Sequence record: PZ445447.1 | Source: a phage | DNA length: 64,000 nucleotides | Strand: one strand, 5' to 3' | Part shown: piece by piece, positions 1,653-46,186 of the stretch | Layout of the letters: every line of letters starts with the position of its first letter | How positions within the stretch are numbered: position 1 is the stretch's first letter | Translations under genes and position numbers: made by a program | Notes under the pieces: generated by a model | The model's input: the letters and a program-made list of their open reading frames with translations, nothing else | What the model was told of the DNA's origin: nothing | The model's database searches: none

Positions 1653-3720
1653 ATTTATGGCATCTGCATACAACCGTTTCGGTGAGCCAAACCCGAAAGC
1701 AACTAAGTATAAAAGTGGGGGAAGTGTGAAACGAGACTATCGTGATGAAAAAGAGGTTGAAACTGTAGAGACTGTTTTAGAAAATACTAAAATTGTCCCT
1801 GTTCCACAACAAAATATCGGTCTGATGGCTGCACAATATTTTGGTGTGCGATCAGCATTGTCTCAAGAAGACGGTGTGACAGTTACTGCAACATATTTCC
1901 CATATTACGACCGCTACGGAAATCTGTCAGGTTTCAAAAAGCGTGACTGGACGATTCCTAAAGAGCAAAGGGGCCATTTCTCAGTTGTTGGCATAGTAAA
2001 GGCTAACTCTCAGATGTTTGGGCAAAAGCTGTGTGCATCTTCCAACAACCGTAAGCAAATTAACGTTTGTGAGGGGGAAGGTGATGTTATTGCAGCATGG
2101 CAGGCTGCATATCAGATACAAGTAAAAGGGATTCTCACCAACGCTAAAGCCCCGGCAAAGGTGAAGCAGTGGGCTAAAGAGGTCCAGGACGGGATCGATG
2201 CAGTTATCAACGGTGGTGATCTGGCAGGAAAACCCTGCCTACCTTTTGTTGGAATTAACTGTGGATGTGCAAACGCAGTAGATACTTTTGCAAACAATGA
2301 GAAGTTTATCCGTAGCTATGGAACAGTTGTGCTGGCAATGGATAACGATGCAGCTAACGAGGTAGAGAAGCAAAAACACGTCATTAAAGGTGTCGAGGCC
2401 ACGCACAATATCGCAGCATTTTTGATGGCTGATAACGTTTACCACGTAGAATACCCTGGTGAAGTAAACGACCCTGACGGTGTAAAAGATATCCGAGACA
2501 TGCTGAAGGCTAAAAAGCTGGAAGATATTGTCAACATGTTCCGGCATCCTGTTAAATATGTGCCTGATGCTGTGTCGGATTTAGAAGACTTCTCTATCGA
2601 GTCTTTGCGGAAAAAGACTTCCAACGGGGTAGATATCAGCGCAGAGTTCCCAAAACTGCAAAAAATGCTAAAAGGCTTGCACAAAGGTACACTCGTAATG
2701 CTTACAGGCCCATCAGGTGGCGGTAAAACAACCGTAGCTAAAAAACTGGAACACTGTATTGCAAGATACCTAATGGACCCGACATGCCCGAAGGCTGATG
2801 ACTATGAAGAGGATGATCGTCTATGTATGATCCATCTTGAGGAGGACCCAGAGGAAGCAATTAACTCCTTGTATGCAAACCAGTTAGGGTTTGATGTTAA
2901 AGAGTTTGTTGAAGATCCTAGCCAGTTTTTAACTGATCAAGAACACGCAGAGATTCATCAGTCATGGGCAAAAGCTGGAAAAATCAAAGTGTTCAAACAT
3001 TTCGGGTCTATTCCGGTGGATGAGTTGATTACCAAGCTTAAGCAAATGGTTTGCCTGTACCATTGCCGTTATATTGTGCTGGATCACCTGTCCATGGTAA
3101 TTTCAGGGCTTAATGTTAAGGATGAGCGAAAAGAACTGGACATGGCTATGACCCAACTGGCTGCGTTTTGTAAGCAGTTTAATGTGTTTATCTTGGTGAT
3201 CGCTCACCTCAAACGTACAGAGATTGTGCCTCCTAAGGACAAGGATGGTAACCCGTTACCTTTCTGGTATCCTGTGCGAAAAGAGAATTTGCGAGGATCG
3301 GCTGGGCTTGAACAGTTGAGTTGGGTAGTTATAGGTGTCGAGGCCGAAGAAATGGTGGATCGTTCTCGTGGGCGTGTCCGTCTGGTAGGTCTTAAAAACC
3401 GTCCAGCAAAAACTTTAGGTATTGCTGACACTTTAGTTATGGACCCGCACACAGGTAAGTTCCATGATGCCAGTAACTGGTACTGGGACAAAGAAATGCA
3501 AATGTTTACAGACGGAGAAGGTGGGGAGGTTGTTTGGAGACCTCAGGCTATGTTTGAGGATCAGGAGCATGCAGTTGTAGAAACACCTATGGGCAAGGTT
3601 GTGGCTGATAAGGTTGTAACTCCTACTGTTAAGCCTGTTGACACGCAGGAAGACCTCCAGTACGATGATCCGTCCTCTGACCATGTTCCTGGTTTTGAGG
3701 ATGATGAAACACCTTTTTAA
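1642..3720 (+). CDS. DNA primase-helicase (TOPRIM primase domain plus DnaB/T7 gp4-like helicase)
   Basis: TOPRIM motifs CEGEGD and VLAMDNDAAN; Walker A GPSGGGKTT; Walker B-like IVLDHLS; 692 aa. Confidence 0.8.
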   Translation: MGSKFMASAYNRFGEPNPKATKYKSGGSVKRDYRDEKEVETVETVLENTKIVPVPQQNIGLMAAQYFGVRSALSQEDGVTVTATYFPYYDRYGNLSGFKKRDWTIPKEQRGHFSVVGIVKANSQMFGQKLCASSNNRKQINVCEGEGDVIAAWQAAYQIQVKGILTNAKAPAKVKQWAKEVQDGIDAVINGGDLAGKPCLPFVGINCGCANAVDTFANNEKFIRSYGTVVLAMDNDAANEVEKQKHVIKGVEATHNIAAFLMADNVYHVEYPGEVNDPDGVKDIRDMLKAKKLEDIVNMFRHPVKYVPDAVSDLEDFSIESLRKKTSNGVDISAEFPKLQKMLKGLHKGTLVMLTGPSGGGKTTVAKKLEHCIARYLMDPTCPKADDYEEDDRLCMIHLEEDPEEAINSLYANQLGFDVKEFVEDPSQFLTDQEHAEIHQSWAKAGKIKVFKHFGSIPVDELITKLKQMVCLYHCRYIVLDHLSMVISGLNVKDERKELDMAMTQLAAFCKQFNVFILVIAHLKRTEIVPPKDKDGNPLPFWYPVRKENLRGSAGLEQLSWVVIGVEAEEMVDRSRGRVRLVGLKNRPAKTLGIADTLVMDPHTGKFHDASNWYWDKEMQMFTDGEGGEVVWRPQAMFEDQEHAVVETPMGKVVADKVVTPTVKPVDTQEDLQYDDPSSDHVPGFEDDETPF

Positions 3721-3735
3721 TGTTTAACAAAGAGT

Positions 3736-3764
3736 GGGAGGGGTAGTACAACCGCCTCCCCTTT
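3736..3764 (+). terminator. putative terminator hairpin
   Basis: GGGAGG...CCTCCC stem followed by CTTT, between primase-helicase and polymerase. Confidence 0.45.
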
Positions 3765-3778
3765 AAGGAGAACTGTAT

Positions 3779-6556
3779 ATGAGCATGTGGTCGTTCGATT
3801 TTGAGTCATCCGGTTTGCTGGAAGACCCAGATCTTTATTATCACTGCGGCCTGTTTAAAGAGCTGAATAAGAACCGTTTTATGCTGTTCCTTCCTCTGAA
3901 TGACCGCACACACTACTCCGAGGAGGATATAGAGAAGGCCAAGAACTTTATTCTGGCAAAGAAAACTCTTTATAAGGATTTTGAAGTTCGCATAGCAGAT
4001 TTTTCGGAGTTGGAAGGTTGGCTTACAGGAAATTCTGACTGGTCACCAACAGCTTTGAACTGCCATAACTGCTACAGTTATGACTTTATGCTGATGGAGA
4101 GATTATCCGGTATTCATTTTGATATGTTCCGTGATCCTAAATGCATGGGGACTATCAACGACCACCAGGTTAACCTGTTTGATACGTTGGCGATGAGCAG
4201 AATCTTGTGGCCTGATCGCCCTTTACCAAAAGGTTGTCCGGACTCTGTATTCAACCCGGTTACTAAGAAAATGCAGCCTGTTGGTCCTCACGGCCTTATG
4301 GCATGGGGCTACGCCCTTGGTAACCAGAAAGTTCAAATTGATGACTGGCGCGATCTTCCGTTGTGGAAGTATGTGGATCGTGTATTCGAGGACGTTATCA
4401 TCCAGGAGCTGCTCTGGAAAGAGCTGGTAGCGGAATCAAAAGGTGTATTCTACGGCAAATCTGACATGCAGAACTTTATGTACGATCCAGCCAAAGAGAA
4501 GCCGAAAGGGTTCAAGAAAATCACCTGGAAGAACGCATTACGCCGAGGCATGCTGCAGCACTTCCTGATGGAGCTGCAGGCCCGTCAGGGTGTGTATTTC
4601 GACATAGATGGGGCTATTGCTTTACGTGACCGTTGCGATGCGTGGATGAAAGAGATCGCTGATCGTGTTGAACCTCAACTTCCTTTAAAAGAGTTGTCAA
4701 TGTCTCAGCGACCCAAGTTCCCTGAAAAGCCGTTTAACCAAGATGGGACAATCTCCAATAATGGTTGGAAATGGTTAAAAGATAAGCTTGGCTATCCTGT
4801 AGACATGAGCGCTTTAGAATTCAAAGCCCCGCCTAAGCGAGCATTTACCTCCACAGGAGATGTCAGCAAGATGGGGATAAAATGGTGCGAAGAGATGGGC
4901 TGCAAAGACCCCGACAAGATGGCTGATTTCTTGAGAGGTTATATTAAGGGCACCTCCACACCACAACCTTTACCTAAAGAGCTGATGGATCAGGCAATAA
5001 GTGATCTGCAGCAGAAGCGAATGCCTGACTGCAAGATACCTATGAAAATCAGCAATCAGGACGACATTAAGCGATACCTGATCAGTGCTGGTTGGCTTCC
5101 GACAATGTGGAGAACTAAGGATGTAACTAAGGACAGCAAGAAGAAAGCTCTACCTGATGCAGATGTTGATGCACGAGTATATGCATACATGGACGAGCTT
5201 TTAGAGTCAGAGTATTGTGACCTAATTATCAACTTCTGGAACAAAACTGATGCTAAGTTTCAGACAACAGTGCACAAGTTCCGAAGCTTTCCTAACTCCG
5301 AAAGGATTAAAAAGGAAGTGTTCGGGAAAATACGCAGAAAAGCCAGGGCACTTATTACTTCTCCGCAACTGAAAGATACGTTTGGACACCTATGTCCGAA
5401 TCTTGAAAAATTGAACGGAGAGATGGCTAAAGATATCGTCTTGTGGTTATCATTGCGAAACCGCAGATCGGTCCTTGATCCAATCAAGGAGGATAAGGTT
5501 GATACTGGTCTTCTTAATCACCCACGTTTGAAGATTGACCATAAGCTTCCTGCTAAAAGCTCTGGATTAACAAACACTTCCCGACAGAAACACAGTATTT
5601 GTGCAAACATGCCTAAACCATCTCCTAAAGTGGTTATGGGTAAAGAGATGCGTAGCTTGTGGGGTGTTCCTCCTGGATATTTTGAGATCGGTATTGACGG
5701 GTCCAACTTAGAGCAGCTTATCGGGGCTTGGGGTGCCTTTGAGTTCGACAACGGCTTGTACTATGATGTTGTAAGTAACGGAGACGCACACCAAAACAAT
5801 GCTGAGGCATATACAAAAGTAGCAGGCAGAGAGGTGTCTCGTAACGACGGTAAACCTATCACGTATGGGGTTATGTACGGGGCACAAAAAGATAAAGTTG
5901 CAGATATGCTGGATATCTCCCCAGAGTTGGGGCAAAGGGTGATCGATGCACTTTGGGATGCCAACCCCGGTCTTAAGGGGCGCAAAGAGGATCTGGAGAA
6001 ATTCTGGGAAGCAACAGGTAAGAAGTTTATCTACTCTTTTGATGGTCATGCTATCTGGACCCGATCTAAACACTCTTTACTTAATGCATACCAACAAAAT
6101 GGTGGTGCATCGCTGTGTGACTTAGTTGGGATACTCATGCACCACCAAATGGTGAAGCGTGGGTGGTACGATGAAGGTGTCCGTCGTATTATTTATTACC
6201 ATGATGAGTACCAACTTCAGGTCCCTGACACACCTAAGTATAAGACTGTGTACACCTTCGACACAATTGAAGAATTGGAAGCATTTAAGGCAGAGCAGGA
6301 GGCCAAACTTCATGTGTTCGACGGTCATAAGTACAAAAAGGCACGCAAGGATGAAAACGGAAACGAAGTGGTTGACAGAGACGGAAACACGGTGTACGAT
6401 CCTATCCTGAACGATGACGGAAAGCTTGAACTTATCTGGAGCCCTGTGGGTGAAATGGTGGTGCATTGCTTCTGGCAAGCTTCTAAAATGATGGGCGTTC
6501 CATTCCAGATCACAGGTGAATACTTGTGCGGTCGTAACTGGGGTGATTGTCACTAA
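3779..6556 (+). CDS. DNA polymerase, family A (Pol I/T7-like) with 3'-5' exonuclease domain
   Basis: Exo I FDFES; motif A DGSNLEQL; motif B RNDGKPITYGVMYG; motif C YYHDEYQ; AAGGAGA RBS; 925 aa. Confidence 0.9.
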   Translation: MSMWSFDFESSGLLEDPDLYYHCGLFKELNKNRFMLFLPLNDRTHYSEEDIEKAKNFILAKKTLYKDFEVRIADFSELEGWLTGNSDWSPTALNCHNCYSYDFMLMERLSGIHFDMFRDPKCMGTINDHQVNLFDTLAMSRILWPDRPLPKGCPDSVFNPVTKKMQPVGPHGLMAWGYALGNQKVQIDDWRDLPLWKYVDRVFEDVIIQELLWKELVAESKGVFYGKSDMQNFMYDPAKEKPKGFKKITWKNALRRGMLQHFLMELQARQGVYFDIDGAIALRDRCDAWMKEIADRVEPQLPLKELSMSQRPKFPEKPFNQDGTISNNGWKWLKDKLGYPVDMSALEFKAPPKRAFTSTGDVSKMGIKWCEEMGCKDPDKMADFLRGYIKGTSTPQPLPKELMDQAISDLQQKRMPDCKIPMKISNQDDIKRYLISAGWLPTMWRTKDVTKDSKKKALPDADVDARVYAYMDELLESEYCDLIINFWNKTDAKFQTTVHKFRSFPNSERIKKEVFGKIRRKARALITSPQLKDTFGHLCPNLEKLNGEMAKDIVLWLSLRNRRSVLDPIKEDKVDTGLLNHPRLKIDHKLPAKSSGLTNTSRQKHSICANMPKPSPKVVMGKEMRSLWGVPPGYFEIGIDGSNLEQLIGAWGAFEFDNGLYYDVVSNGDAHQNNAEAYTKVAGREVSRNDGKPITYGVMYGAQKDKVADMLDISPELGQRVIDALWDANPGLKGRKEDLEKFWEATGKKFIYSFDGHAIWTRSKHSLLNAYQQNGGASLCDLVGILMHHQMVKRGWYDEGVRRIIYYHDEYQLQVPDTPKYKTVYTFDTIEELEAFKAEQEAKLHVFDGHKYKKARKDENGNEVVDRDGNTVYDPILNDDGKLELIWSPVGEMVVHCFWQASKMMGVPFQITGEYLCGRNWGDCH

Positions 6557-6605
6557 TGTAAACTATCAGCACAGGGAGGTGCTGTTGAGCAAAGAGGAGA
6601 CTTTT

Positions 6606-6890
6606 ATGGTAGTAGAGCCAACAAAAACATTTACATCCATGACCATTCCTGTTATTATGCAGGTGGAGTGTGTTCAGGTATCTCAAGTGTGGCCTGGCAC
6701 CAAAATCCCAACAGGGCCTGATTTCTTTCAGGTTGGGAAAGTGTACAATGTCTGGAAGGCACCAGATTGTTACCCTTTCATTAAAGATGACCGTGGGATG
6801 CTGTGGTATCTTGGAAATGACTTGACACTGCACCTTGGGAATGCTATTATTGCAGTATTCAGACTTAACAAGAAGGAGACCGATCAATGA
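6606..6890 (+). CDS. hypothetical protein
   Basis: ATG after AAAGAGGAG RBS, in frame within ORF 6516-6890. Confidence 0.6.
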   Translation: MVVEPTKTFTSMTIPVIMQVECVQVSQVWPGTKIPTGPDFFQVGKVYNVWKAPDCYPFIKDDRGMLWYLGNDLTLHLGNAIIAVFRLNKKETDQ

Positions 6891-7114
6891 CGACTTTGGT
6901 TAAAGCTACCTTTGTAGAAGAAAAGATGACAGACCTGTCATTCTTTAAAGAAGGAAAGACCTACGAGGTTTATTACGATAAAGCTCGTGCAAACAAAATG
7001 ATTAAAGACGAGGAAGGGGTTGCCTGGTATATCTCTCACCTGGCAAACGGTGAGTATCATATCTACGGAACCACTTTGCTTGCCAAGTTTGTAGTTGTTG
7101 AAGAGGACCTATGA
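6887..7114 (+). CDS. hypothetical protein
   Basis: ATGA stop/start overlap with upstream gene; AGGAGA RBS. Confidence 0.6.
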   Translation: MTTLVKATFVEEKMTDLSFFKEGKTYEVYYDKARANKMIKDEEGVAWYISHLANGEYHIYGTTLLAKFVVVEEDL

Positions 7115-7305
7115 AAGTAAAGTATCTTGCTGAAGGTATGAATAGGTATTTTACCCTTGGTGAAGAATATTGGCCCTTTACAAACAACGGTGATGTCTAC
7201 GTGAAAGATAATTTCGGCACGCCGTGGTTTCTGCACTCTAATGGGCTGGGATACTCCATTTACTGCGGTGCAGTGAACAACACAACTCTTGCAGAGTTCG
7301 TTTAG
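7111..7305 (+). CDS. hypothetical protein
   Basis: ATGA overlap, translational coupling. Confidence 0.55.
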   Translation: MKVKYLAEGMNRYFTLGEEYWPFTNNGDVYVKDNFGTPWFLHSNGLGYSIYCGAVNNTTLAEFV

Positions 7306-7315
7306 AGGAGGTAGG

Positions 7316-7687
7316 ATGTTAGTAAAAGGTACCCATACAGTCAAACAACGTATTGAAGTTGAGATTGATGATTGTGAGCTGAAGCATATTTTACGGTCAT
7401 GCTCCAACGTTTTGCTCCTTAGTATTCTCCAGGAGCGAGCGGAGAACGAGTTCTTAAATGCACTGGCAGGCCGCCCTGGTGATTTCTGTGTGCGTAAGCG
7501 TGGTGACAACAAGTCATGGCTGTGGGAGATAGACGCAGAATGGGATTACCATAAAAATGAGGGTATAGATGAACCTATTCGTGAATTGACGGACAACGAG
7601 GTTCAGATGTACAATGAAGTTTGTCAGTGGGCAAAAAGTCAACAAACTTATCTTGATCCTTGGTGGATGATCGAAAATAGTCGTTGA
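7316..7687 (+). CDS. hypothetical protein
   Basis: ATG after GAGGAGG RBS; in frame with ORF 7289-7687. Confidence 0.6.
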   Translation: MLVKGTHTVKQRIEVEIDDCELKHILRSCSNVLLLSILQERAENEFLNALAGRPGDFCVRKRGDNKSWLWEIDAEWDYHKNEGIDEPIRELTDNEVQMYNEVCQWAKSQQTYLDPWWMIENSR

Positions 7688-7763
7688 CAGGAAGTAAGAT
7701 TAGATATAAGATGCTTCACACAAACAGAGCGTTGATTGTTTAACACTTAAGGAGACCGCTAAG

Positions 7764-8081: not shown

Positions 8082-8354
8082 ATGACCAAACAATATCAAC
8101 GAATTAAAGCCAAGGTTAAGCCAGACTATCTGGAGAAGGACTCTGCTTTTCGGGACTGCACAGCTGACAAAGTTTACACAGGGGCCGTCCTGTTGAACGA
8201 TGAACTTGAAGTAGATATTCTGGGTAAAGAGGCCACTATTAAGGACGACCAAGGCGATTATGTTTGCTGCACCACACGTGAGCTAGAAATCTTAGAATAC
8301 TTCGGTGAAATCTTCACCTCTCTTGATGATTACTTAGATGATGAGGAAGCGTGA
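8082..8354 (+). CDS. hypothetical protein, paralog of 7764-8018
   Basis: ATG downstream of promoter at 8022; in frame with ORF 8022-8354. Confidence 0.6.
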   Translation: MTKQYQRIKAKVKPDYLEKDSAFRDCTADKVYTGAVLLNDELEVDILGKEATIKDDQGDYVCCTTRELEILEYFGEIFTSLDDYLDDEEA

Positions 8355-8743
8355 TGAAAAATATTTGGGATATCGATATCTTTGAAGCCTCTAAGCTTGA
8401 TGGTGCTGATGGAGTGATTATGGTGTCTGATGGCAAGGCAACACTAACTTCTGGGGATATCATCTATGCCTTGGACGAGCTGGCGCTTCTGAAATCTACC
8501 GGTAACACTTTAGAGGAGCGTCTTCAAGGCTTCGCCTTCAAAGAAGGCACAAATACCGCCATGATGTGCACCACACGGACAGTTCAAGTTGGTAACGGTG
8601 TCTATATGATCATTGCTGTGTGTCCTAAATTCAGCAACGTCAACAAAGATGATGCTGACGCTGTCAACGATGTGGTTGTTCTCTTCGTGGGTGACGCTAT
8701 GGCAGATCTGATGAATGCAGGAGAAGCAGCAAATGAAGACTGA
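8354..8743 (+). CDS. hypothetical protein
   Basis: ATG after GAGGAAG RBS; 129 aa. Confidence 0.6.
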   Translation: MKNIWDIDIFEASKLDGADGVIMVSDGKATLTSGDIIYALDELALLKSTGNTLEERLQGFAFKEGTNTAMMCTTRTVQVGNGVYMIIAVCPKFSNVNKDDADAVNDVVVLFVGDAMADLMNAGEAANED

Positions 8744-9035
8744 AAACATCACCCCCGCAGGGTTCTTAAAAGTATACCGTGAACTGCTATATACTACAGA
8801 GGACAGTGTTCTAGAGTATCCAGAATATCTTTTGCTGTATAAGTATCTGCAGGAGGCTGGTGAAAATCTGCCAGTTAGTGCAGAAGGTGGTCCGAACTGG
8901 ATATACAGCGCATGGAGAAAGGTTGACATTCTCCCCGACCCAGGTAAAGATATGGTAGTTTGGCAGCTTATTAACAACATCGGGATTCCAATCTTTGATG
9001 AAGCTGTTAAAATCTATTTTGAACTTGACGATTAA
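8733..9035 (+). CDS. hypothetical protein
   Basis: ATG after GGAGAA RBS, overlaps upstream stop. Confidence 0.55.
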   Translation: MKTENITPAGFLKVYRELLYTTEDSVLEYPEYLLLYKYLQEAGENLPVSAEGGPNWIYSAWRKVDILPDPGKDMVVWQLINNIGIPIFDEAVKIYFELDD

Positions 9036-26341: not shown

Positions 26342-26761
26342 ATGAACATTAAATCTAATAATCCGGCATATAGCTTTGATAACGCTTTTTGTCACGGTCC
26401 GGCGGCGAAAGGATTCGAAATCGATGGTAAACTAATTATTGTCAATGTTGACGGGGAAGAGGTTGCAGTATATCCGGTGGCAGACGTTAAAAGCCGTCTA
26501 CAATGCCGCATGGATGTTACCGCCTATCAGCTTGATCCGGTCCGCATAGTTGCCCTGGTCCTGGAAGAAGAAATTAAAGCCATGCACCATAGCAACAGAT
26601 TTATTGGTGACGCGCAGGATAATATGAAAGTATGCCGCCATAAAGTTAATGAAGTGCTTAAAGAGTACGGCTATAAAGATCTTATGATCAAACGCGAGGA
26701 AAAATTCCGCTACCGTAACGACCTGGCAAATCGGATTTTTGAAATATACGAATCATTATAA
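26342..26761 (+). CDS. hypothetical protein
   Basis: AAGAGGTAAAAACACCATG; 139 aa; last plus-strand gene before the convergent hub. Confidence 0.6.
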   Translation: MNIKSNNPAYSFDNAFCHGPAAKGFEIDGKLIIVNVDGEEVAVYPVADVKSRLQCRMDVTAYQLDPVRIVALVLEEEIKAMHHSNRFIGDAQDNMKVCRHKVNEVLKEYGYKDLMIKREEKFRYRNDLANRIFEIYESL

Positions 26762-26780
26762 TTTTTTAACTGAATTATCA

Positions 26781-26805
26781 AGGGGCTTAGGCCCCTTTCT
26801 TTTTG
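26781..26805 (+). terminator. rho-independent terminator
   Basis: AGGGGC-TTAG-GCCCCT then TTCTTTTTG. Confidence 0.7.
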
Positions 26806-26806
26806 T

Positions 26807-29273
26807 CTGCTCTTCCCCCTACCATAAACGGCCCTACCTGGCAAGTGGAATAATTGACGAGCCATCAATCCCACACACTGTACAAACATACATATAAAAT
26901 AACTATTGCATAATTTTTCATTGTGTGGTAGCAGGGCCATTTTTACACGTTTTTCCTTCCAAAATTGCACGTAATGCAGCATTTGCACAAAATTTAACCT
27001 GATGCATATATTCAATAGCTTGTCAACAACTAAAAATCTTTATAAGTCATACACTTACATAACTACAAAAGCGTTTTCTACGTGAAAAATCGAGTATAAC
27101 TATAGCCGCCAGATCTCAGAATTTACGTACGCTCGCCATTCTATAGCCTGCTAAGCATTTATTCCAACCATAGAATAACGGAATAGTCAATACCTGCATA
27201 AAATAATTATTCGTGTAAACTGCATAACATAAATCGGCCCAGGTGTCAACATTTTTCGTAAACAGTCTGGAATTGTCACGTTAGGTTACCATAAGCAGAG
27301 AAATCTTCAGTCGTCTAATGTTTACTGTACGTTACTATATTAACTGAAATCATTAGATGACTAATAGAAAGATAAGAAATAATTAACAATACAATTATTT
27401 TATCTGTAACAATAAGGCAACTATGCAAACGAATGGCATGGCGCGACGGAGTCGCGACATAATATAAAAGCAGTAACCATCACCCCCGTGATAGTTTGTC
27501 TGCAAACTATTAATCAGATCATAGTTGCCTTGTATTTAGTTAATCATGACATAACAAGCAAGGCAACTATAGATCTGCTAATAGTTGCCCTGCTTTTATA
27601 TTATGTCATGCTAATTATAATCAGTGCGATTATTGTCATGTATAATTATTGTCATGCAAACGAATGGCATGGCTGATTATCGGTGTGTAAACAGTCAATC
27701 ATGTAAATGGTTAGCATGTGAACAATCAGGAATGTAAACAATCCAGTGTGTAAACTAATAGGTGTGTAAAAGTGTCATGTTGTGTCAGTTAGGTCACATT
27801 ATGTCAGACAAGTTTTTCTCCTCTTTGTCAAGTGCTGCATGAAAAATTTACAAGCTTGTATGGTAGCATTTTTGCGGCCCTGTTTACATTCAGGAGTGTA
27901 TGTATAATCCTTGGTGTGTGGGCGTTTAGACGTCTGGACGGTAAGAAGTCTGCAGGTTAATATCTAATCTATCGGCTGCTAACTATATCCCACACAAATA
28001 GTAAGAAATATAATTGTTATGTGCGTAAACAGTAACCCATGTTATCAATCCCTGTATGTATCGCCAGTGGTGCGCATAATGGGTATTATGTTAAATTGCC
28101 CGTAATGATAAAGGTTCTCACAATGATAGGTATTCTCATTCACCCTCACAAAATAGATTGCAAATGTTGTGCCACTGTGTGAACGGCCTCACCTATTAAT
28201 TTGCCTCACTGCCTCGATATTTGAGAATTATTATAAGAATGAGAAGTATTCCCATTTCGTCCGCCTGGCAGCACTCCAGTCGCTACGGCTCATGACAGGG
28301 CAGCACTCCTGTAGGTCAGGTCAAAATCGTGGTAGAATTGGGCCTGTTCAGATATTTCTGGCTGACTCTTCAGGTCTGTGTGGGAAAAGCCAACCTCTCC
28401 GGCGGGGCAGGGGGTCATGACGGGAAAATTGCAGGTCAATTAAAAAATTTACGTGGTGTATGAAGCGCTCTTCAGGTAAGGCAGGTATTAGAGGATGAAA
28501 CCCTCTTCAGGCAATGATATTTGTGGGTGTGATATTTGCTGGAAAGCCAGATATGACGGGACTCCCGGCGGGGATGGGGTAGTACAGACAGGGAAAATAT
28601 GGGGATGTAGTTGGGTAAATTGATCAGGCAGGTAGAGTATGGATTATGTTACAGGTATGTTAAATATGGAGGTTGAATATCTGTAAGATTTGTGTGTAAA
28701 ATCAAAGACTTAAGTGGTGTTGTGGTATTTTCTATAAATAATTCAAGTTTAATAGGTAATATTTGTCTCTATCCACTTTGTGTGGTAAACAGATTCAGAT
28801 GAAATTGGTTTACAAGTGTATACATAATATACAAATTAAAGATACAAGAAACCCCCCTCCCCTTCGGCTACCATTCACCTTTTCCTCTGACTGGTACTTA
28901 AACACTTATTCAGACTCTTCAGGTTATCACCCATATATCATATGGCAGTGACTGGTGTCCTCCGGCCCCTCTTTCGTCACCCGTCCGCTTCGCCATGCTA
29001 ATGCCATAGCCAATGGTTCGGTTGTTCACCCTGTTCACTCAGGTGTATCTCCATACCCCTTCAAACCGAAGAGAACAGAAAACCCGAATTACTCGGTAAA
29101 AGAAAAGAGAAGAACTTAATTTTATCAAGATAGGCAAGAATGTCAAGGCATGACTGCTCACTAAACAAGCAAACAGTCATGTGTGGGAGGTAAGTGATTG
29201 TGGTTGTAGGAAATTTAGTTGAAAGATGTGTTATAGGTGCTTCCAGCACTTTAGCCGGGTAGCTAATTGTGTG
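26807..29273. other. large non-coding, repeat-rich region between convergent gene blocks (candidate origin, packaging or regulatory hub)
   Basis: No ORF with credible RBS; AT-rich; inverted repeats around 27425-27610 (ATAGTTGCC in alternating orientation); five TGTAAA(C) repeats 27680-27770; CTCTTCAGG four times 28366-28930. Confidence 0.5.
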
Positions 29274-29489
29274 TCAGTCCAGCGGTTCATCCTCTACTTC
29301 ACTGAAATCAATGTTCATGGTCTCTTCCCAACCATCGATCTCAGCACAAGAGTGGAGTTCTTTAGGGTTTACTCCCAAAGCCTCAGCAACAGAGTCTATA
29401 TTTAACACCTCTGGCAGGTATGATTCATCGAATTCAAGGTAAATCAGGCCACGAGTGTTGTCAGCTCCACCAAATATCTCTATCTTCAT
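29274..29489 (-). CDS. hypothetical small acidic protein
   Basis: GAGGAG RBS; starts MKIEIFGG like several array members; 71 aa. Confidence 0.55.
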   Translation of the reverse strand: MKIEIFGGADNTRGLIYLEFDESYLPEVLNIDSVAEALGVNPKELHSCAEIDGWEETMNIDFSEVEDEPLD

Positions 29490-35891: not shown

Positions 35892-36146
35892 TCACAGCTC
35901 TACAATATCTGCATCTGACCCTACCCCAAAGGCATAGTAGGACTCTTCCCCGAAATAATATTCAGGTGCACCAGCGGTGATCAGGTCTGATCCCAAGATA
36001 AACACCACGTTGTGGCCTACATAACTGTGATGTTGCCGCACAGGATCATCCCACGGCAACCCTTCAAAGTATACCGCAGGAACGACCTTTCCATTCAGGA
36101 AGGATTGTCCCAAGTAGACGTTAGAATCAAGAATTTTAACCTTCAT
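35892..36146 (-). CDS. small protein, paralog array member (family A, MKVK-LDS type)
   Basis: GGAGGA RBS; starts MKVKILDSNVYLGQ. Confidence 0.65.
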   Translation of the reverse strand: MKVKILDSNVYLGQSFLNGKVVPAVYFEGLPWDDPVRQHHSYVGHNVVFILGSDLITAGAPEYYFGEESYYAFGVGSDADIVEL

Positions 36147-36360
36147 GATCGTCCTCCACTACCTCTACATCCTCACCTAGGGCAAAGTTATAGGTCCACT
36201 GACTGTCAAAGCATTCCTGAGATGCACCAGCGGCAATAAGATCTGCTCCTTTTATTTTTAAAAGGTCAGGGTAATCTTCGTTATGGACAGCAGTAAACAC
36301 TTTTCCTACTAAAGGCTCCTGACCAATATAGAAGCTTGAATCTAAAACTTTAACTTTCAT
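36136..36360 (-). CDS. small protein, paralog array member (family A)
   Basis: GGAGA RBS; starts MKVKVLDSSFYIGQ; ends ...DVEVVEDD. Confidence 0.65.
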   Translation of the reverse strand: MKVKVLDSSFYIGQEPLVGKVFTAVHNEDYPDLLKIKGADLIAAGASQECFDSQWTYNFALGEDVEVVEDDHEG

Positions 36361-36641
36361 CAACGGTCTCCATCAGGTGGTTGTGGGACGTAAACACTGT
36401 TACGAATATCGTCAGCAGTGTAGTAATAAGTGGTTCCAACCCTGTCTCGGGCTGCAATGTACTCTGCTATACCAATAAGTGCCATTGATTTGGTGGCGTA
36501 TCTTCCCCACTCGTTAGCTCCCCAGTAGAATTTAGACCAGTAAGGAATAAGACCGAACAAATATACCTTTTGACGAACTTCCCAGTAAGTGCCTTTTCCG
36601 ACAAGTTTAAACTCGACTTCACTACTGTTAATCTTTTTCAT
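36360..36641 (-). CDS. hypothetical protein
   Basis: GAGGGAG RBS; W/Y-rich. Confidence 0.55.
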   Translation of the reverse strand: MKKINSSEVEFKLVGKGTYWEVRQKVYLFGLIPYWSKFYWGANEWGRYATKSMALIGIAEYIAARDRVGTTYYYTADDIRNSVYVPQPPDGDR

Positions 36642-37930: not shown

Positions 37931-38164
37931 TCACTCCTCCACAACTTCAAGGCCTTTACCGCCTCGCTCTGGCAGATTACTTAAAGATAGGTAATACATA
38001 TAATCAGGAGAGATCCTGCCAGACTCTGCACCTGCAGCTAGTAAATCCTTCCCTTTAACCAGGACAACATTCTCGTTTGCAGATAGCCGTTTTGCTTCCA
38101 CAATTTTACCAACACAGTCAACCAAGGAAGGGTACCCTAAATCTGTAAGAAATTTAACTTTCAT
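37931..38164 (-). CDS. small protein, paralog array member (family A)
   Basis: AGGAGG RBS; starts MKVKFLTDLGYPSLVD; ends ...GLEVVEE. Confidence 0.65.
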   Translation of the reverse strand: MKVKFLTDLGYPSLVDCVGKIVEAKRLSANENVVLVKGKDLLAAGAESGRISPDYMYYLSLSNLPERGGKGLEVVEE

Positions 38165-38872: not shown

Positions 38873-39157
38873 CTACCAGGTTACTGTCAAGTAGGCAACC
38901 GTGTTATTTTTCTCTGGAGAGATGCCAACAACATCTACCTGCAGACCTCCTGCCCTCAAATCCCCAACAATATGCGGGAAGTAATCTGAGAGATGTGAGG
39001 GTAGATTTATCGAAAATCCGCATCCCAGAAAGCCTGCTAACGCTTTATTTTGTATCTCCCCTACAATCGCATCATAAATGGAGTTAAGCTCGTCAGGGAG
39101 CGTTACAGGACGTTTTAGCGCTAACTGGTGCAACTTGTCCTTAGCACTCATTTTCAT
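38873..39157 (-). CDS. hypothetical protein
   Basis: ATGA overlap with methyltransferase stop; in frame with ORF 38873-39226. Confidence 0.5.
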   Translation of the reverse strand: MKMSAKDKLHQLALKRPVTLPDELNSIYDAIVGEIQNKALAGFLGCGFSINLPSHLSDYFPHIVGDLRAGGLQVDVVGISPEKNNTVAYLTVTW

Positions 39158-39687
39158 TTCAAATCTGCCTCTGGTGGTGCCAACCACATAAATGGCGGCA
39201 AGTCTAGACGGTTTTTCTTGTCCCATACAAAATATGCATATGCCTGACCATCCGTTCTACCATTGGATTGGAATGACGGGCGCTTAGATATTGTGATCAC
39301 AGTGGTAGGTGCATTATCAAGCCACCATTCAAATCTGGCCTTGCTTTCCAGAAAATTAAGACGCAAAAGCATAATAACTACGTCGGCATCTTTCAACGCC
39401 TTGTCTACAAACTCACGAGCCAGACTGTATGGTGGGTTGGTGATAATACAGTCAACATGGTTGTATTCTGTATTCAGATAGTCAACACCTTCTTGGATTT
39501 CTCCCCATGCAGATCCTAACGGCATACGGGAGTAGAACACACCTGAGGCACTATTCCTGCAAGGCTCTAAGTAGGTCCAGTCTTCTGGGAACGGAATAAG
39601 GTCATACAGCCCTTCTGCACACCACTCCGGTGTTACATACTCATCGTAGGCGTTACGTTGTTCATCAGGTTTTCTAGCACAAGTCAT
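39154..39687 (-). CDS. DNA adenine (N6) methyltransferase, phage Dam-like
   Basis: Catalytic motif IV ITNPPYS; GGAGA RBS; 177 aa. Confidence 0.65.
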   Translation of the reverse strand: MTCARKPDEQRNAYDEYVTPEWCAEGLYDLIPFPEDWTYLEPCRNSASGVFYSRMPLGSAWGEIQEGVDYLNTEYNHVDCIITNPPYSLAREFVDKALKDADVVIMLLRLNFLESKARFEWWLDNAPTTVITISKRPSFQSNGRTDGQAYAYFVWDKKNRLDLPPFMWLAPPEADLK

Positions 39688-39738
39688 GCAAATCTCCAGA
39701 TCATAAAAGCCCTCCGAAGAGGGCTTTAGAATTAATGT

Positions 39739-40788
39739 TTAAGCTTCTTCGACAATTCCTGCACCCAGGATTTTTTCATTGAGCTCTTTTGCTGTTTTAA
39801 TAATATTGTCCACCAGACGCTTGCGCGTCTTATCTTTCACCTTAACCTCTTCACCGCCGTTCAGAGTAGTCTTCAATTGAGACAGAATATCCTGAAGTTC
39901 AACGACAGAGAATCTCTGCAGATCTTCTGAAGTAATCTCACTCAGGGCAATTCTGACAGTCTCGCCACTTTCCATCTGCAGATTCAGGAACACAGTGTGA
40001 ACATCACCTTTCGAACCACCCGCTTTTGCAGATTCAACAGCATGAACTAACTCATCTAAAGATGTGCACTGGTGAATCTCCGGAAGACCTGCTTCACCTA
40101 ACACGCCTTCTTCATCACCTTTTGCCAAAAGCTTTTTCGGTTTTTGTCCGTTCTGGATGCGTTGTATGTTGCCTTCATCCAGAATAATAGCTCCAGTGCG
40201 TGCTGCCAGCTCTTCTCCGTCCAACCACACTTCGCCACCAGCTGTGATGGATGCGATCTCATCTTCTGTCAGCACCCCACCGTAGTATTTTTCGATCAGG
40301 CGTTCAAAACGTTTTTTCCAGTAGCTGACCTGAGTATTCATGTTCACACCGTTACCATAAGTGCCACCTTGATAGTAGTGGAACATAAACTCTGTGTCCG
40401 GAGCCACAGTACGTTCTTTACAACCAAGCCATAAGATTGTTCCAGCAGAGCAGCACATCCCTTCAGCATGTGCAACAACGCTTGCCTGAGACTCGCGGAA
40501 TGCCTGCAGATAAGCCATTGCAATGTGCACGCAACCCCCAGGACTATTGATGATCACCCGAATGCTTTCTTCCGGCTGAGCCATACGGATCGTCTGCAGA
40601 CGAGACATATGATCTTGTAAGTCTTCCAAATCGTCGATATAAAGAACGTGGTCAACAACAGGTGTTGGGTAGCTGTATGTTTCCATAATACCACCCGGCA
40701 TACCAAACATTTTATTACTCATAGGTTCGAAACCGTTCTGTTTTTCTTTCATGCCGTGTACCATGGTGCTGCGAGGTGTTAAATTCAT
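39739..40788 (-). CDS. ClpP/S14-like serine peptidase with C-terminal extension
   Basis: INSPGGCVHIAMAY (ClpP INSPGG-like) and GMCCSAGTIL (catalytic Ser region); about 150 aa extra C-terminal helical domain. Confidence 0.65.
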   Translation of the reverse strand: MNLTPRSTMVHGMKEKQNGFEPMSNKMFGMPGGIMETYSYPTPVVDHVLYIDDLEDLQDHMSRLQTIRMAQPEESIRVIINSPGGCVHIAMAYLQAFRESQASVVAHAEGMCCSAGTILWLGCKERTVAPDTEFMFHYYQGGTYGNGVNMNTQVSYWKKRFERLIEKYYGGVLTEDEIASITAGGEVWLDGEELAARTGAIILDEGNIQRIQNGQKPKKLLAKGDEEGVLGEAGLPEIHQCTSLDELVHAVESAKAGGSKGDVHTVFLNLQMESGETVRIALSEITSEDLQRFSVVELQDILSQLKTTLNGGEEVKVKDKTRKRLVDNIIKTAKELNEKILGAGIVEEA

Positions 40789-40848: not shown

Positions 40849-41160
40849 TTATTTAGCAATCACTAGGGAATACTTACGATTGTCAGAAGCATCACAGCTC
40901 AATGATTGCCAGTCTACCACATACCACGTATCATTGTCAACAATTACTTTATCGCCTGTTCTGTAGCAGGTGCTGCTTTCAATAATCCGAGACTCGATAA
41001 AGAATCTGTGTCGGCGCTCACGTAGCAACGCTAAGTTGATTATATTACCACCACTGTCCTTGATCCACACATTCTTGGATCCTTTATTTGCCAAAATTGT
41101 CTCGCCGTTATAGACAAACAGGCAGTATATTTTATTCAGTCTCTCTTGTATTGTAGCCAT
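40849..41160 (-). CDS. hypothetical protein
   Basis: AGGAGA RBS; own promoter 41191-41219. Confidence 0.6.
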   Translation of the reverse strand: MATIQERLNKIYCLFVYNGETILANKGSKNVWIKDSGGNIINLALLRERRHRFFIESRIIESSTCYRTGDKVIVDNDTWYVVDWQSLSCDASDNRKYSLVIAK

Positions 41161-41190: not shown

Positions 41191-41219
41191 ATAATATCTA
41201 AATCTTACCTGTTTGTCAA
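41191..41219 (-). promoter_or_regulatory. sigma70-type promoter (minus strand)
   Basis: Minus-strand TTGACA, 17 nt spacer, TATTAT. Confidence 0.65.
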
Positions 41220-41263: not shown

Positions 41264-42052
41264 TTACTCGGAAACAGGGGTCCAAATATGATTTGCACGA
41301 TCCTCGATAAGATTGAGTGCAATCTGACGACCCAACCCGGAACGAACGACATCATCTGGACTATCAAAGCTGATCATTCCAACCTCAGGATCTGGATGGC
41401 GAGTAAAGAAATCCGTCACCCATGCAAGGCCAGATTTACCAGGGATGTCACGTTGGCTATTATCACCCATAATTACAAGGGTGGCTTGATCAGAGATCCT
41501 TGTGATAATTGACAACATTTCTTCAGGGTTAGTTTGCTGTGCCTCGTCAATCAGGACAAAGCATCGCTCATCGAAACTACGACCACGAATGCTTTCAACT
41601 TCACAAATCTCGATACGACTGTTCTGACCGTCTCCCAGCATTGCGGCAAAAGCACCTTTGCCAACACGGAGACAAATCGTGTCCATCATGCTTCGAAGAT
41701 AGGGCCACAGTTTCTGCATTGCATTTCCAGGTTTAAATCCTGAAGTCTTTCCTGTCTGAACGTAAGGGCGTGCAACAATGATCTTATCAATCTCGTTCTT
41801 ACGCAGAAGATCACCTGCATATGCAGATGCCATGAACGTCTTACCAGACCCAAACACACCGTTTACAATAATAATCTTACGTGACCCTAGATAATCAAGA
41901 TACTTTTGCTGCTTCTTGTTCATTGGTCGGAGAGCTGGAGCGGTGTGCTCTCTTTCGTCAGCAAATTTCTCAGCAGCCTTACGCAGGCGATCAGATTTTC
42001 TAGCCTCTCTAGCTTCATCACGCATGCGTTTTGTTTCTTTAGCTCGACCCAT
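41264..42052 (-). CDS. phoH: PhoH-like ATPase
   Basis: Walker A GVFGSGKTF; LIDEAQ; GDNSQRD; AAAGGAG RBS. Confidence 0.85.
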   Translation of the reverse strand: MGRAKETKRMRDEAREARKSDRLRKAAEKFADEREHTAPALRPMNKKQQKYLDYLGSRKIIIVNGVFGSGKTFMASAYAGDLLRKNEIDKIIVARPYVQTGKTSGFKPGNAMQKLWPYLRSMMDTICLRVGKGAFAAMLGDGQNSRIEICEVESIRGRSFDERCFVLIDEAQQTNPEEMLSIITRISDQATLVIMGDNSQRDIPGKSGLAWVTDFFTRHPDPEVGMISFDSPDDVVRSGLGRQIALNLIEDRANHIWTPVSE

Positions 42053-43265: not shown

Positions 43266-44471
43266 TCAGCAACCACAACTTCCGTAGTGCTTAACCCGTT
43301 CTATAACTTCCGCTTGCTTACCTTTATTGTAAGGACGGGAGTTTGGACTAGACAGGTACCCGGATACACGTCTGATCACACTGATCGTTCCCTCTTCATG
43401 GTTTCCACACTCTGGGCATACGAATCCCTTAGCTGTTGCACTGAACTCACCAGAGAAACCACACTTAAGACATTTATCCACAGGCTGGTTGATACCAAAA
43501 TACATAATGTGTTTATATCCGAAATCAACAAGAGCTTCCAAAGCATCTAAGTTGTTTTTCAGATTTGGTGTCTCTACGTATCCGATGTTGCCACCAGAGG
43601 ATATCATAGCAAAACCTTCTTCATACTCCCACTTATCAAAAGGAGAGCTATTGATCCATACTGGCTGATGGAAACTGTTGGTGAGATATTCATGCTCGTG
43701 CTTCAACACTTCAGGATATTCACGATCCAGACAGGTTGCAGCTTTATAGCATAGACTCTCAGAAGGGGTGCCGTACAAACTAAACGCTAGTCTACTTTTC
43801 TTCTTGTATCGCTCACAAGCATCTCTCATGTGCTGAAGTATTCCAAGAGCTAAAGCCTTGTCACCCTCTCTGCCCAAAATCTGACAGGTTTCATACACAC
43901 CAATATACCCAATACTGATGGAAGCGTACCCGTCATAGAAGAGTTTATCAATACTCTCTTCAGGATCCAGGCGAGCAAGAGCGCCTTCACACCACATGAT
44001 AGGGTTCTGCCCTGCCTTAGTGCCTTTCAGACGGTTAACCCTTACAAGGTGAGCTTCATATGCCAAATCCAGATACTCGTCAAGAACGGAAAAGAAATCA
44101 ACACCTTCCGTCTTAGCTTTTGCCGCAATCATTGGCAGGTTAAGACTAACAACACCCAAGTTGAATCTGCCGAGGTATTTCTCCTCACCTGTTTCCAAGT
44201 CATTGTATTTGCTAAGAAAACTCCGGCAACCCATGCTCGTTACTTTACCATCTGTCGAGCCTGTCACTTTACGATTTAGTGGAACAGAAACAAAGTCAGG
44301 ATAAATCCGCTCTGCAGAGCATTCCAGAGCTAATCGTTTCAAATCATAGTTAGGATCTCCAGGGTTCATGTTGACACCCTCTTCTAGGAAGAACAACACT
44401 TTAGGGAACACAGGTGTGATACGTTCTTCACCAAGACCCATTTTGTGGACTTTCAAGTAGTTTTTGGTAAT
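43266..44471 (-). CDS. nrdD: anaerobic ribonucleoside-triphosphate reductase, exon 2 (C-terminal part)
   Basis: C-terminal CxxC pairs and glycyl-radical-like RVSGYL; exon start placed right after intron terminal G (inferred). Confidence 0.7.
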   Translation of the reverse strand: MTKNYLKVHKMGLGEERITPVFPKVLFFLEEGVNMNPGDPNYDLKRLALECSAERIYPDFVSVPLNRKVTGSTDGKVTSMGCRSFLSKYNDLETGEEKYLGRFNLGVVSLNLPMIAAKAKTEGVDFFSVLDEYLDLAYEAHLVRVNRLKGTKAGQNPIMWCEGALARLDPEESIDKLFYDGYASISIGYIGVYETCQILGREGDKALALGILQHMRDACERYKKKSRLAFSLYGTPSESLCYKAATCLDREYPEVLKHEHEYLTNSFHQPVWINSSPFDKWEYEEGFAMISSGGNIGYVETPNLKNNLDALEALVDFGYKHIMYFGINQPVDKCLKCGFSGEFSATAKGFVCPECGNHEEGTISVIRRVSGYLSSPNSRPYNKGKQAEVIERVKHYGSCGC

Positions 44472-45325
44472 CATTCTACCAAAGACTGAGGTGTCCAGAC
44501 CTAAACTTAATGTGATGAATGGAGTCTGCTGTCTCCTCCCTGTGTTTCCACAGGGCCAGACTATCTCTTACTCTACTTCAATAAGATAATAACCCTTTAT
44601 TGTGAGATGCTTACCTTCGGCATTTCCTTCGATAGCCCTATGAACGTTACCTACGTTCAAATTTAAGGCTTTTGCACAGGCATAGAGTGAAGGATATTCA
44701 CCCACCAAGGTTTTACCTTTGTATGCCTGCACTTTCCTATAGCACTTACCTGGACAAAGTCCTGTTCGGAAAGCATGTCTCTTATTATCTTCCGGCAAAA
44801 CCCACTCTAGGTTAGACGGATGATCATTCAATGTATTGCCATCTTTATGATTCACTTCCCAGTTTTCAGGGTCTACTGGGACATCTGGCAAACAATACAA
44901 GGCAACAACCCTTGAGGTTTGGATTCGAATCTTTTTGCCTTTGTGGTTGAAAGAGTACATATAACGGCGTTTAACATGCTTGTTACCTTTTCCATAACCT
45001 CCCCACAATATTGGGTGCAGCATTCCACGTTTTCCGTATACGTTTCCAACCTCATCAATCACATAGTTTGATTCTTCACCATTAAGAATGATCTTTTTCA
45101 TAGAGCCTCTCCATTTCGAAGTTAGCATTTCAACTAACCCCTACACTACTTGGTTCAGAAATGTTTGTCAAGCATCTCTGCCTTTCGTTAGTCGTTACAA
45201 CCGTTCCAACTCCTGTAAGAACTAGTCACGGGATTGGCATAGCTTTCGCCTTAGCGTTCCCCGTTAGCCGGATTTACCGACCCCTCTTATGAGGTTAGGA
45301 GAGTTTTACAACGGCCAGTTTGTTA
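44472..45325 (-). mobile_element. group I intron interrupting nrdD, carrying an HNH homing endonuclease ORF
   Basis: Begins UAA right after exon 1; contains AACGGGGAAC and CAAUCCCGUGACUA elements resembling the T4 td/nrdD intron core as I recall it; ends AAUG before exon 2. Confidence 0.7.
44568..45128 (-). CDS. HNH homing endonuclease (intron-encoded)
   Basis: NHKDGNTLNDHPSNLEWV HNH motif; same strand as nrdD. Confidence 0.8.
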   Translation of the reverse strand: MLTSKWRGSMKKIILNGEESNYVIDEVGNVYGKRGMLHPILWGGYGKGNKHVKRRYMYSFNHKGKKIRIQTSRVVALYCLPDVPVDPENWEVNHKDGNTLNDHPSNLEWVLPEDNKRHAFRTGLCPGKCYRKVQAYKGKTLVGEYPSLYACAKALNLNVGNVHRAIEGNAEGKHLTIKGYYLIEVE

Positions 45326-46186
45326 ACCGTTGACAGAAGTTAACGTATTGATTTGATAGAGCAAAGTCTGCATGCTGTCAAATACGTCTTTATCTGTCAT
45401 TTGCATTGCAACAGTCTCAGCATCTGGCAACCAATGTTCCTGGCAAAATTTAAGGTTCTTCTCATAGGTCGCTTCAGCATACTGTGCCAGATAATGATCA
45501 ATATGGCTCATAGTCTGACCACCATATTGAGCACTAGCTACTGCACTAGAGATTTGGCTAAGGATTGTTGTTGCAACCCCTATTGACTTCGGCTTACTGA
45601 CATGGGCGTTACCAATGTTGAATCCGTTTTCCAACATATCTGGATAATTTACCAAACAACAGTTTGTTAACGGACTGATCAAGTAGTCAAGATCATGCAC
45701 ATGGATGAAGCCCCTATTGTGCTCTTCTGAGACACGGTCTGGCAGGATCTGTGTTGATGCAAGGTGTTTGCTAAGGATGCCTGCAAGCAGGTCACGATGA
45801 GTGTGTACATGATTGGTAGGCTTATTTGCGTTTTCTTTTGTAAATTCATCACAAGTTCGATCCAAGAAGCCACTAATATCTGCAAGCAGTTTTCCACCTG
45901 CCTCTCTGTTATTATCTCTTGTCTGTCTATACTGGATGTATTCTCTGGCTGCACATTTTAAACCCATATCCATAAGAGCGTCTTCAACAAGGATATGGAT
46001 ATTTTTTACAGAGATCGTGCACTGATCGGTTGGTAGATTGTTAGCAACAACTTCATTAACCGCGCAGGCGATCCGGTAAGCTTCTTCTTCAGTATGTCCA
46101 GACTCAAGTAAGGCGGACTCTGCCGCCTTGATCACCTTAATTCCGTTATAGAACTCTTCTCTACCGTCCCGTTTTACAACTTTCAC
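45326..46186 (-). CDS. nrdD: anaerobic ribonucleoside-triphosphate reductase, exon 1 (N-terminal part)
   Basis: ATP-cone-like N-terminus MKVVKRDGREEFYNGIKV; ORF ends ...TSVNG with stop at intron start. Confidence 0.7.

Follow-up and report, generated by a model that had tools for sequence, protein, structure and literature searches.

The stretch of DNA analysed here, referred to as the window, comprises 64,000 nucleotides of a phage genome (sequence record PZ445447.1; positions 66025-130024 in the record of Escherichia phage MaxBurger) and carries on its minus strand a gene encoding a ClpP-like protease (39739..40788, record positions 105763-106812), a second protease separate from the enzyme of the phage head and the subject of this analysis. 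The gene consists of a 349-amino-acid (aa) open reading frame (ORF) plus stop codon, starts with ATG and is preceded by an AAGGA ribosome-binding site at a spacing of 6 nucleotides (nt); strand, start and extent agree exactly with the ORF picked out beforehand by a model given the sequence alone (hereafter the sequence-only reading). A 3.1-kilobase (kb) stretch around the gene is 100% identical to Escherichia phage MaxBurger (Bas54, MZ501093.1; Vequintavirus, rV5-like) and 97-99% identical to about 100 further rV5-like records. The locus is present in 123 phage records at 80-100% DNA identity and protein homologues with at least 80% coverage occur in 182 phage records, which places the ORF well beyond chance and identifies it as a real gene. 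Its existence is not new, as it is already annotated in more than 100 genomes (bas54_0171, ‘ClpP-like protease’, in the deposited annotation), has a PHROG of its own and appears in the 2013 rV5 paper, in which the counterpart is gp122, a protein of 349 aa named ‘ClpP (ATP-dependent) protease subunit’ (Table S3, PMC3606486). About 19 records titled ‘Campylobacter phage’ (e.g. MG065658.1, MG065661.1 and MG065682.1; stated host Campylobacter jejuni) are also 98-99% identical over the 3.1-kb query, and the Campylobacter host assignment of these rV5-like records is doubtful.

The core of the protein is a peptidase domain with the ClpP fold, encompassing aa 45-212 (40153..40656; this and all features of the gene given below are on the minus strand). 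In the AlphaFold2 model of the full protein, which has a mean predicted local distance difference test score (pLDDT) of 74.6, this domain is modelled confidently (pLDDT mostly 85-95) and includes a 23-residue helix at the place of the ClpP handle helix. All top Foldseek matches in the PDB are ClpP chains (best 6wr2, expectation value (E) 2e-10, template modelling (TM) score 0.70 normalised to the ClpP target), and hhalign aligns the domain to E. coli ClpP with a probability of 96%. The preceding N-terminal part, aa 1-44 (40657..40788), is of low confidence (pLDDT below 50 for aa 1-43) and varies in length among homologues, and it carries a conserved FGxPG...Y-x-YP motif.

Sequence conservation in the family, assessed in an alignment of 19 homologues with 41-69% identity, is strong throughout the protease part, and the oxyanion-hole GG of its INSPGG motif is invariant across the long family. 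Ser114 (codon 40447..40449) and His137 (codon 40378..40380) are invariant in all 19 homologues and align to the catalytic Ser97 and His122 of mature E. coli ClpP, a placement obtained alike by profile alignment with solved ClpP structures and with E. coli ClpP. Both residues are still invariant when the ICP1 and Pakpunavirus homologues (25-30% identity) are added to the MAFFT alignment. The third catalytic position is less uniform. Glu186 (codon 40231..40233) is the expected match of ClpP Asp171, an equivalence deduced from the ungapped spacing off the aligned His, as the hidden Markov model alignments stop short of the position; it is Glu in four and Gln in 15 of the 19 members, Asp in ICP1 Gp211 and Glu in Pakpunavirus.

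The profile searches place the protein in the ClpP superfamily, and curated criteria assign it neither to canonical ClpP nor to the head-maturation proteases of the ClpP type. Pfam CLP_protease (PF00574) matches aa 59-168 with 47.7 bits against a gathering threshold of 20.2. PHROG 5410 (the long, Vequintavirinae-type family labelled ‘ATP-dependent protease’) matches over the whole length (aa 24-345 against profile positions 4-322 of 323, E 2e-155) and PHROG 1827, a shorter family with the identical label, matches aa 52-200 (E 2.6e-40). Several PHROGs labelled ‘head maturation protease’ come next and score 53-79 bits, PHROG 1684 being the best (79 bits, aa 70-256), followed by 94, 2976 and 133. 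The top NCBIfam match is likewise to a ClpP-related head-maturation domain (NF045542), at 60.3 bits and below the curated cutoff of 120. The four best NCBIfam models of ClpP itself (NF009205, NF001368, TIGR00493 and NF011090) reach 27.8-39.1 bits against cutoffs of 228-347, so that the protein falls outside canonical ClpP. It also falls outside the S49 SppA domain (E 0.021, 14.4 bits against a cutoff of 155) and the SDH-type model (E 2.4e-5, 24 bits against 250).

In E. coli ClpP, the IGF/LGF loops of ClpX and ClpA bind in a pocket made up of Tyr60, Tyr62 and Phe82. In the phage family these positions are occupied by an invariant Arg (Arg77), by Ile or Val (position 79) and by an invariant Glu (Glu99), respectively, and the region around INSPGG in which they lie is gap-free in both the hhalign and the MAFFT alignments. 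An invariant Gly takes the place of the Arg located beside the catalytic Asp of E. coli ClpP, and the axial-loop region falls in the poorly modelled N-terminal residues, outside the hhalign alignment. Judged from these alignments, canonical docking to the host unfoldases would be unlikely, as the pocket residues are replaced, the N-terminal loop is unalignable and the Arg is exchanged for Gly. The replacement of the ClpX/ClpA pocket residues by invariant Arg77 and Glu99 also leaves the ‘ATP-dependent’ label unsupported. This bears directly on the explanation behind that label, namely that the protein is a proteolytic subunit of an ATP-dependent Clp machine which replaces or mixes with host ClpP and redirects proteolysis through host ClpX or ClpA. 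The ClpP fold with its handle helix, the Ser and His in place, the Pfam score above threshold and the naming in most records all agree with such a role. However, given scores far under every curated ClpP model, a pocket of altered composition, an N-terminal region that neither aligns nor is modelled with confidence and the Gly next to the catalytic acid, it is an unlikely explanation. A Keio screen with the V5-like phage LL12 makes no mention of clp or lon genes; this is uninformative for an accessory gene, and the silence on clp genes counts weakly against a Clp subunit.

The sequence-only reading had described a C-terminal extension of about 150 aa of helical sequence. The length is right, as about 150 aa follow the protease domain, and the helical character applies in part, since a linker and a beta-hairpin are present as well. 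The elements in and after the end of the protease domain are a short helix (aa 205-212), a beta-hairpin (267-281) and two long helices (295-309 and 322-342). The linker, aa 213-261 (40006..40152), is modelled with low confidence and is variable in length and sequence; its aa 223-237 have a pLDDT below 50, and its helix 244-257 is an insertion found only in the rV5/phi92-like clade. The C-terminal domain proper, aa 262-349 (39742..40005), gives a pLDDT of 84.6 and a predicted TM score of 0.73 when modelled in isolation with AlphaFold2, and then shows the beta-hairpin, a short helix and the two long helices. Phe293, Glu297 and Arg322 are invariant in this domain, and each of the 16 members examined has an acidic version of it, with net charges of -1 to -19.

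Within the libraries searched, neither sequence nor fold comparison reveals relatives of the C-terminal domain outside the family. When its profile was run against 1.84 billion representative proteins, five matches came back, all of them family members or their fragments, and the viral structure library BFVD returned one significant match, a family-sized protein of 303 aa. All Pfam and PHROG matches to the C-terminal part are sub-threshold. A SAP/HeH-like, nucleic-acid-binding reading suggested by the sequence pattern was dropped, because the domain is acidic in every member and the match to the Rho N-terminal-domain fold is at noise level. Homology to the extension of ICP1 Gp211 was likewise rejected (hhalign probability 0.4%). 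A role in protein-protein interaction is the most economical inference for this domain.

The gene context was examined with respect to expression and neighbouring functions. A sigma70-type promoter-like site (TTGACA-N17-TATTAT, 41191..41219, minus strand), identical to the consensus at 11 of 12 positions, is predicted by sequence scan upstream of an ORF of 103 aa (40849..41160, minus strand; rV5 gp121, bas54_0172; PHROG 5456, E 3e-39). This ORF is the first and the ClpP-like gene the second of two genes which end at an intrinsic terminator (39703..39724, minus strand) beginning 14 nt past the protease stop codon. The terminator is a GC-rich hairpin with a U-tract, GCCCTCTTCGGAGGGC followed by TTTTAT, and its RNA fold has an energy of -14.7 kcal/mol and a z-score of -2.8. 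The same elements had been predicted independently in rV5, in which promoter P121 corresponds to the 41191..41219 site and terminator t122 is identical to 39703..39724, and the T4-like late-promoter motif of rV5 is listed for structural genes only (Table S4, PMC3606486). The ClpP-like gene thus looks like the second cistron of a unit predicted to depend on the host polymerase.

Upstream of this unit lies a gene for a PhoH-like ATPase (41264..42052, minus strand; Pfam PhoH, E 9.5e-47), which is set apart by a hairpin downstream of phoH and ahead of the promoter. Directly downstream of the protease gene is a putative N6-adenine DNA methyltransferase gene (39154..39687, minus strand; weak Pfam Dam and EcoRI methylase matches). 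The sequence-only reading had put the protease between a methyltransferase and phoH, which is accurate for the adjoining methyltransferase, while the ORF of 103 aa intervenes on the phoH side. The order PhoH, one to three small genes, ClpP-like protease, DNA methyltransferase is kept in Vequintavirus (MaxBurger), Seunavirus (EC152) and Certrevirus (CR3), and the order PhoH to ClpP-like protease is also found in ICP1. A partner gene conserved across lineages between phoH and the protease was looked for and rejected, as the genes in between are unrelated, with a DprA-like one in EC152 and one for an HNH endonuclease in ICP1. The gp121-like ORF is the only shared intervening gene, and only within Vequintavirinae, with a homologue of 29% identity in the corresponding block of EC152; gp121 is a candidate partner of the protease. 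It has no Pfam or PADLOC match. PADLOC gives no match for the ClpP-like protease either, and a relationship to a defence system is unsupported.

A head module with its own protease is found elsewhere in the genome. In MaxBurger it occupies record positions 3214-7700, about 58 kb upstream of the first base of the window and about 100 kb from the ClpP-like gene, which lies on the opposite strand, and it encodes portal (3214-4770), protease (4838-5257), scaffold (325 aa), decoration protein and a major capsid protein matching Pfam Phage_cap_E. The protease, a ‘prohead protease’ of 139 aa between portal and scaffold, matches Pfam Peptidase_S78_2 (PF14550, XkdF) with 65 bits against a cutoff of 24. 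Alongside the XkdF-type capsid protease, the ClpP-like protein is consequently a second and distinct protease, and this duality is common to ICP1 and Pakpunavirus. In Pakpunavirus the gene following the portal gene (8353-8823), wrongly named ‘DNA methyltransferase’, is of the XkdF type (76 bits) and a separate ClpP-like gene encoding 182 aa is located amid early small genes. In ICP1 the annotated ‘capsid protease’ (Gp125) shares 40% identity with the XkdF protease of the rV5 type, and the ClpP-like Gp211 is encoded away from it, downstream of nrdAB and phoH. Scaffold degradation in ICP1 has been assigned to Gp125 (PMC7567579; PMC9040626). The ICP1 capsid genes gp122-126 are late, and the nucleotide-metabolism genes peaking at 12 min fall within gp176-gp211 (PMC7567579), a range of which Gp211 is the final gene. 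The best PHROG of the XkdF-type capsid protease, in MaxBurger (4838-5257) as in Pakpunavirus (8353-8823), is PHROG 1530, labelled ‘DNA methyltransferase’, and several phage records name the XkdF-type gene ‘DNA methyltransferase’ or ‘DNA-binding protein’; the methyltransferase label looks like a propagated mis-annotation.

These data were weighed against a capsid-associated role, in which the ClpP-like protein would be a second head-maturation enzyme, or a scaffold-like fusion entering the procapsid via its C-terminal domain, and would process scaffold or internal head proteins. Such a role is suggested by the head-maturation profiles being the best PHROG matches after its own families and the top match in NCBIfam, and by the layout of a protease followed by a helical C-terminal region, as in protease-scaffold fusions (e.g. 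lambda C/Nu3). The likeness to such fusions, already noted in the sequence-only reading, has some evolutionary basis, since the protease domain scores higher with head-maturation profiles (PHROG 1684 at 79 bits) than with cellular ClpP models, but the prohead role proposed along with it is not supported. The NCBIfam score is about half of its curated cutoff, an XkdF-type protease and a separate scaffold are already present in the head module, and about 100 kb separate the gene from this module. The block around the gene is conserved together with genes of nucleotide metabolism, and the gene stands behind a sigma70-type promoter and without the late motif. Mass spectrometry of rV5 virions (19 proteins) does not include gp122, and six gp122 tryptic peptides are absent (PMC3606486). 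Furthermore, the short Pakpunavirus homologues are without any extension. The sequence-only reading had seen no structural genes near the protease, and indeed none is annotated within the 64-kb window; neither a clear prohead-family assignment nor capsid genes just outside the window were found. The ClpP-like protein is very unlikely to be the prohead protease, and a capsid-associated role of any kind appears decidedly improbable. One rV5 protein encoded about 3 kb downstream of the protease gene, gp133 (151 aa, one transmembrane segment), is termed a predominant virion protein (PMC3606486), and its detection in virions amounts to no more than 2 peptides and 2 low-scoring spectra (supplementary table, PMC3606486). 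Taking this detection as a sign that the block encodes structural proteins was given little weight because of the two low-score spectra. A catalytically dead ClpP-fold scaffold, chaperone or decoy, poisoning host ClpP rings for example or binding a host factor through the C-terminal domain, would accommodate the frequent Gln at the Asp171-equivalent position and the docking and ring-ring contact residues that differ from ClpP, but it deserves very little credence, as a Ser, His and GG pattern invariant in the family, with Ser and His kept down to 25-30% identity in ICP1 and Pakpunavirus, is unexpected for an inactive protein.

The explanation favoured, with moderate confidence, is that the gene encodes a non-structural, self-compartmentalising ClpP-fold serine peptidase of the early or middle phase of infection, acting through Ser114 and His137 on cytoplasmic targets recruited or regulated by means of the C-terminal domain. 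The gene would be co-transcribed with the small upstream gene from the sigma70-like, host-type promoter, and this type of promoter, within a block devoted to nucleotide metabolism and replication, points to expression that precedes that of the late structural genes or is independent of it. Ser114 and His137 would carry out catalysis, the third position being Glu or Gln. The retained ClpP handle helix makes a ring-shaped, self-compartmentalised oligomer likely, and the protein would probably not serve as a plug-in subunit for the host unfoldases, as its ClpX/ClpA pocket residues are replaced. The acidic C-terminal domain of 88 residues, carried on a flexible linker of about 50 residues, is most likely a protein-protein module, which may bring a substrate or partner to the protease or regulate access to the ring. 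The substrates would be cytoplasmic proteins or peptides of host or phage. Of the options left by the sequence-only reading, a non-structural and possibly host-directed protease is thus favoured by exclusion and by gene context.

Several points weigh against this explanation. The Gln found at the third catalytic position in most members may mean that the activity differs from that of ClpP. Beyond its own family, the protease domain is nearer to phage head-maturation profiles than to cellular ClpP models, which may reflect a capsid-related ancestry or a residual capsid role; as a hypothesis only, the family could derive from a capsid protease that shifted to another role. The evidence for early or middle timing consists of a predicted promoter and a distant homologue in ICP1 (about 36% identity over the protease domain), and the loss of the docking pocket is read off an alignment rather than a model of the complex. 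The absence of gp122 from rV5 virions is weak evidence, since the proteome is shallow, with 19 proteins, and maturation proteases often leave the capsid. No experiments on the ClpP-like protein or its close homologues, and no functional study of rV5 gp122, ICP1 Gp211 or any phage ClpP homologue, were found in the literature searched.

A broader proposal would see in these proteins an uncharacterised class of host-takeover or counter-defence proteases, formed by ClpP-fold rings that work independently of unfoldases and capture host proteins early or midway in infection by means of lineage-specific C-terminal domains. This is put forward tentatively and is doubtful at present. The differences between lineages would be read in the same tentative way, the C-terminal domain being orphan and acidic in Vequintavirinae, different in ICP1 and lacking in Pakpunavirus.

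Other features were noted in the window. Downstream of the protease gene, three small ORFs on the minus strand (35892..36146, 36136..36363 and 37931..38164, encoding 84, 75 and 77 aa) share an N-terminal MKVK-x-L and a central G-x-DL-x-AAGA and look, from these motifs, like paralogues. The gene for a class III anaerobic ribonucleotide reductase (43266..46000) is annotated as two joined pieces with an intron between them, and this intron carries an ORF for a homing endonuclease of 186 aa (44568..45128). A region of about 2.5 kb (26761..29274) is without annotated genes and contains only ORFs of at most 101 aa and neither a tRNA nor an Rfam family. In this region the coding strand and the guanine-cytosine skew change sign, and exact direct repeats (20 nt, at 27423 and 27654) occur together with a perfect inverted repeat of 18 nt (27456-27473 and 27590-27607). 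A function in regulation or as an origin is conceivable, as is a cluster of very small genes.

An extra ClpP-like gene beside a separate capsid protease is a feature of many large virulent myoviruses, among them rV5-like biocontrol phages, the cholera phage ICP1 and the Pseudomonas PAK_P1-like therapy phages, and the databases apply the label ‘ATP-dependent protease subunit’ to it without support. The annotation should no longer imply a partnership with ClpX/ClpA or a role in the capsid. As the family is already catalogued, the result is chiefly a clarification rather than a discovery. What is new is the distinction of this second protease from the XkdF type, the recognition of the same duality in ICP1 and Pakpunavirus, the lack of support for the ‘ATP-dependent’ label and the family restriction of the C-terminal domain. 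If specific host or phage proteins are indeed degraded, the gene would represent a part of host takeover that is both conserved and open to experiment.

Compared to known systems, the protein resembles cellular ClpP (MEROPS S14; E. coli ClpP, PDB 1tyf and 6wr2) in its fold over about 160-175 residues, in the INSPGG motif, in the placement of Ser and His, in the spacing from His to the third position and in the handle helix. It differs in its low identity (about 19-24%, below all curated thresholds), in the Arg and Glu that replace Tyr60 and Phe82, in the unalignable N-terminal loop and in the Glu or Gln as third residue. The phage protein also adds the linker and the 88-aa C-terminal domain, and is encoded by a virulent phage. 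The ClpP-related head-maturation proteases (NF045542; PHROGs 1684, 94, 2976 and 133) are its closest protease-domain profiles beyond its own family, and some of them likewise have C-terminal extensions or fusions; unlike these, it scores at half of the cutoff, is encoded outside the head module behind a host-type promoter, was not detected in virions and comes from a genome whose capsid protease is a different, XkdF-type enzyme and whose scaffold is encoded separately. The ClpP/crotonase superfold is also that of the SppA-type S49 peptidases and of lambda gpC, a protease that serves as scaffold with its C-terminal part, although the profile matches are marginal and the S49 enzymes use a Ser-Lys dyad, whereas the phage protein keeps the His of ClpP. 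The short family PHROG 1827 (ICP1 Gp211, Pakpunavirus, Otagovirus and others) has a homologous protease domain, a non-structural position, downstream of phoH in the case of ICP1 Gp211 as well, and an XkdF-type capsid protease alongside. The difference lies beyond the protease domain, after which the Pakpunavirus proteins end (182 aa), while ICP1 Gp211 continues with a dissimilar extension.

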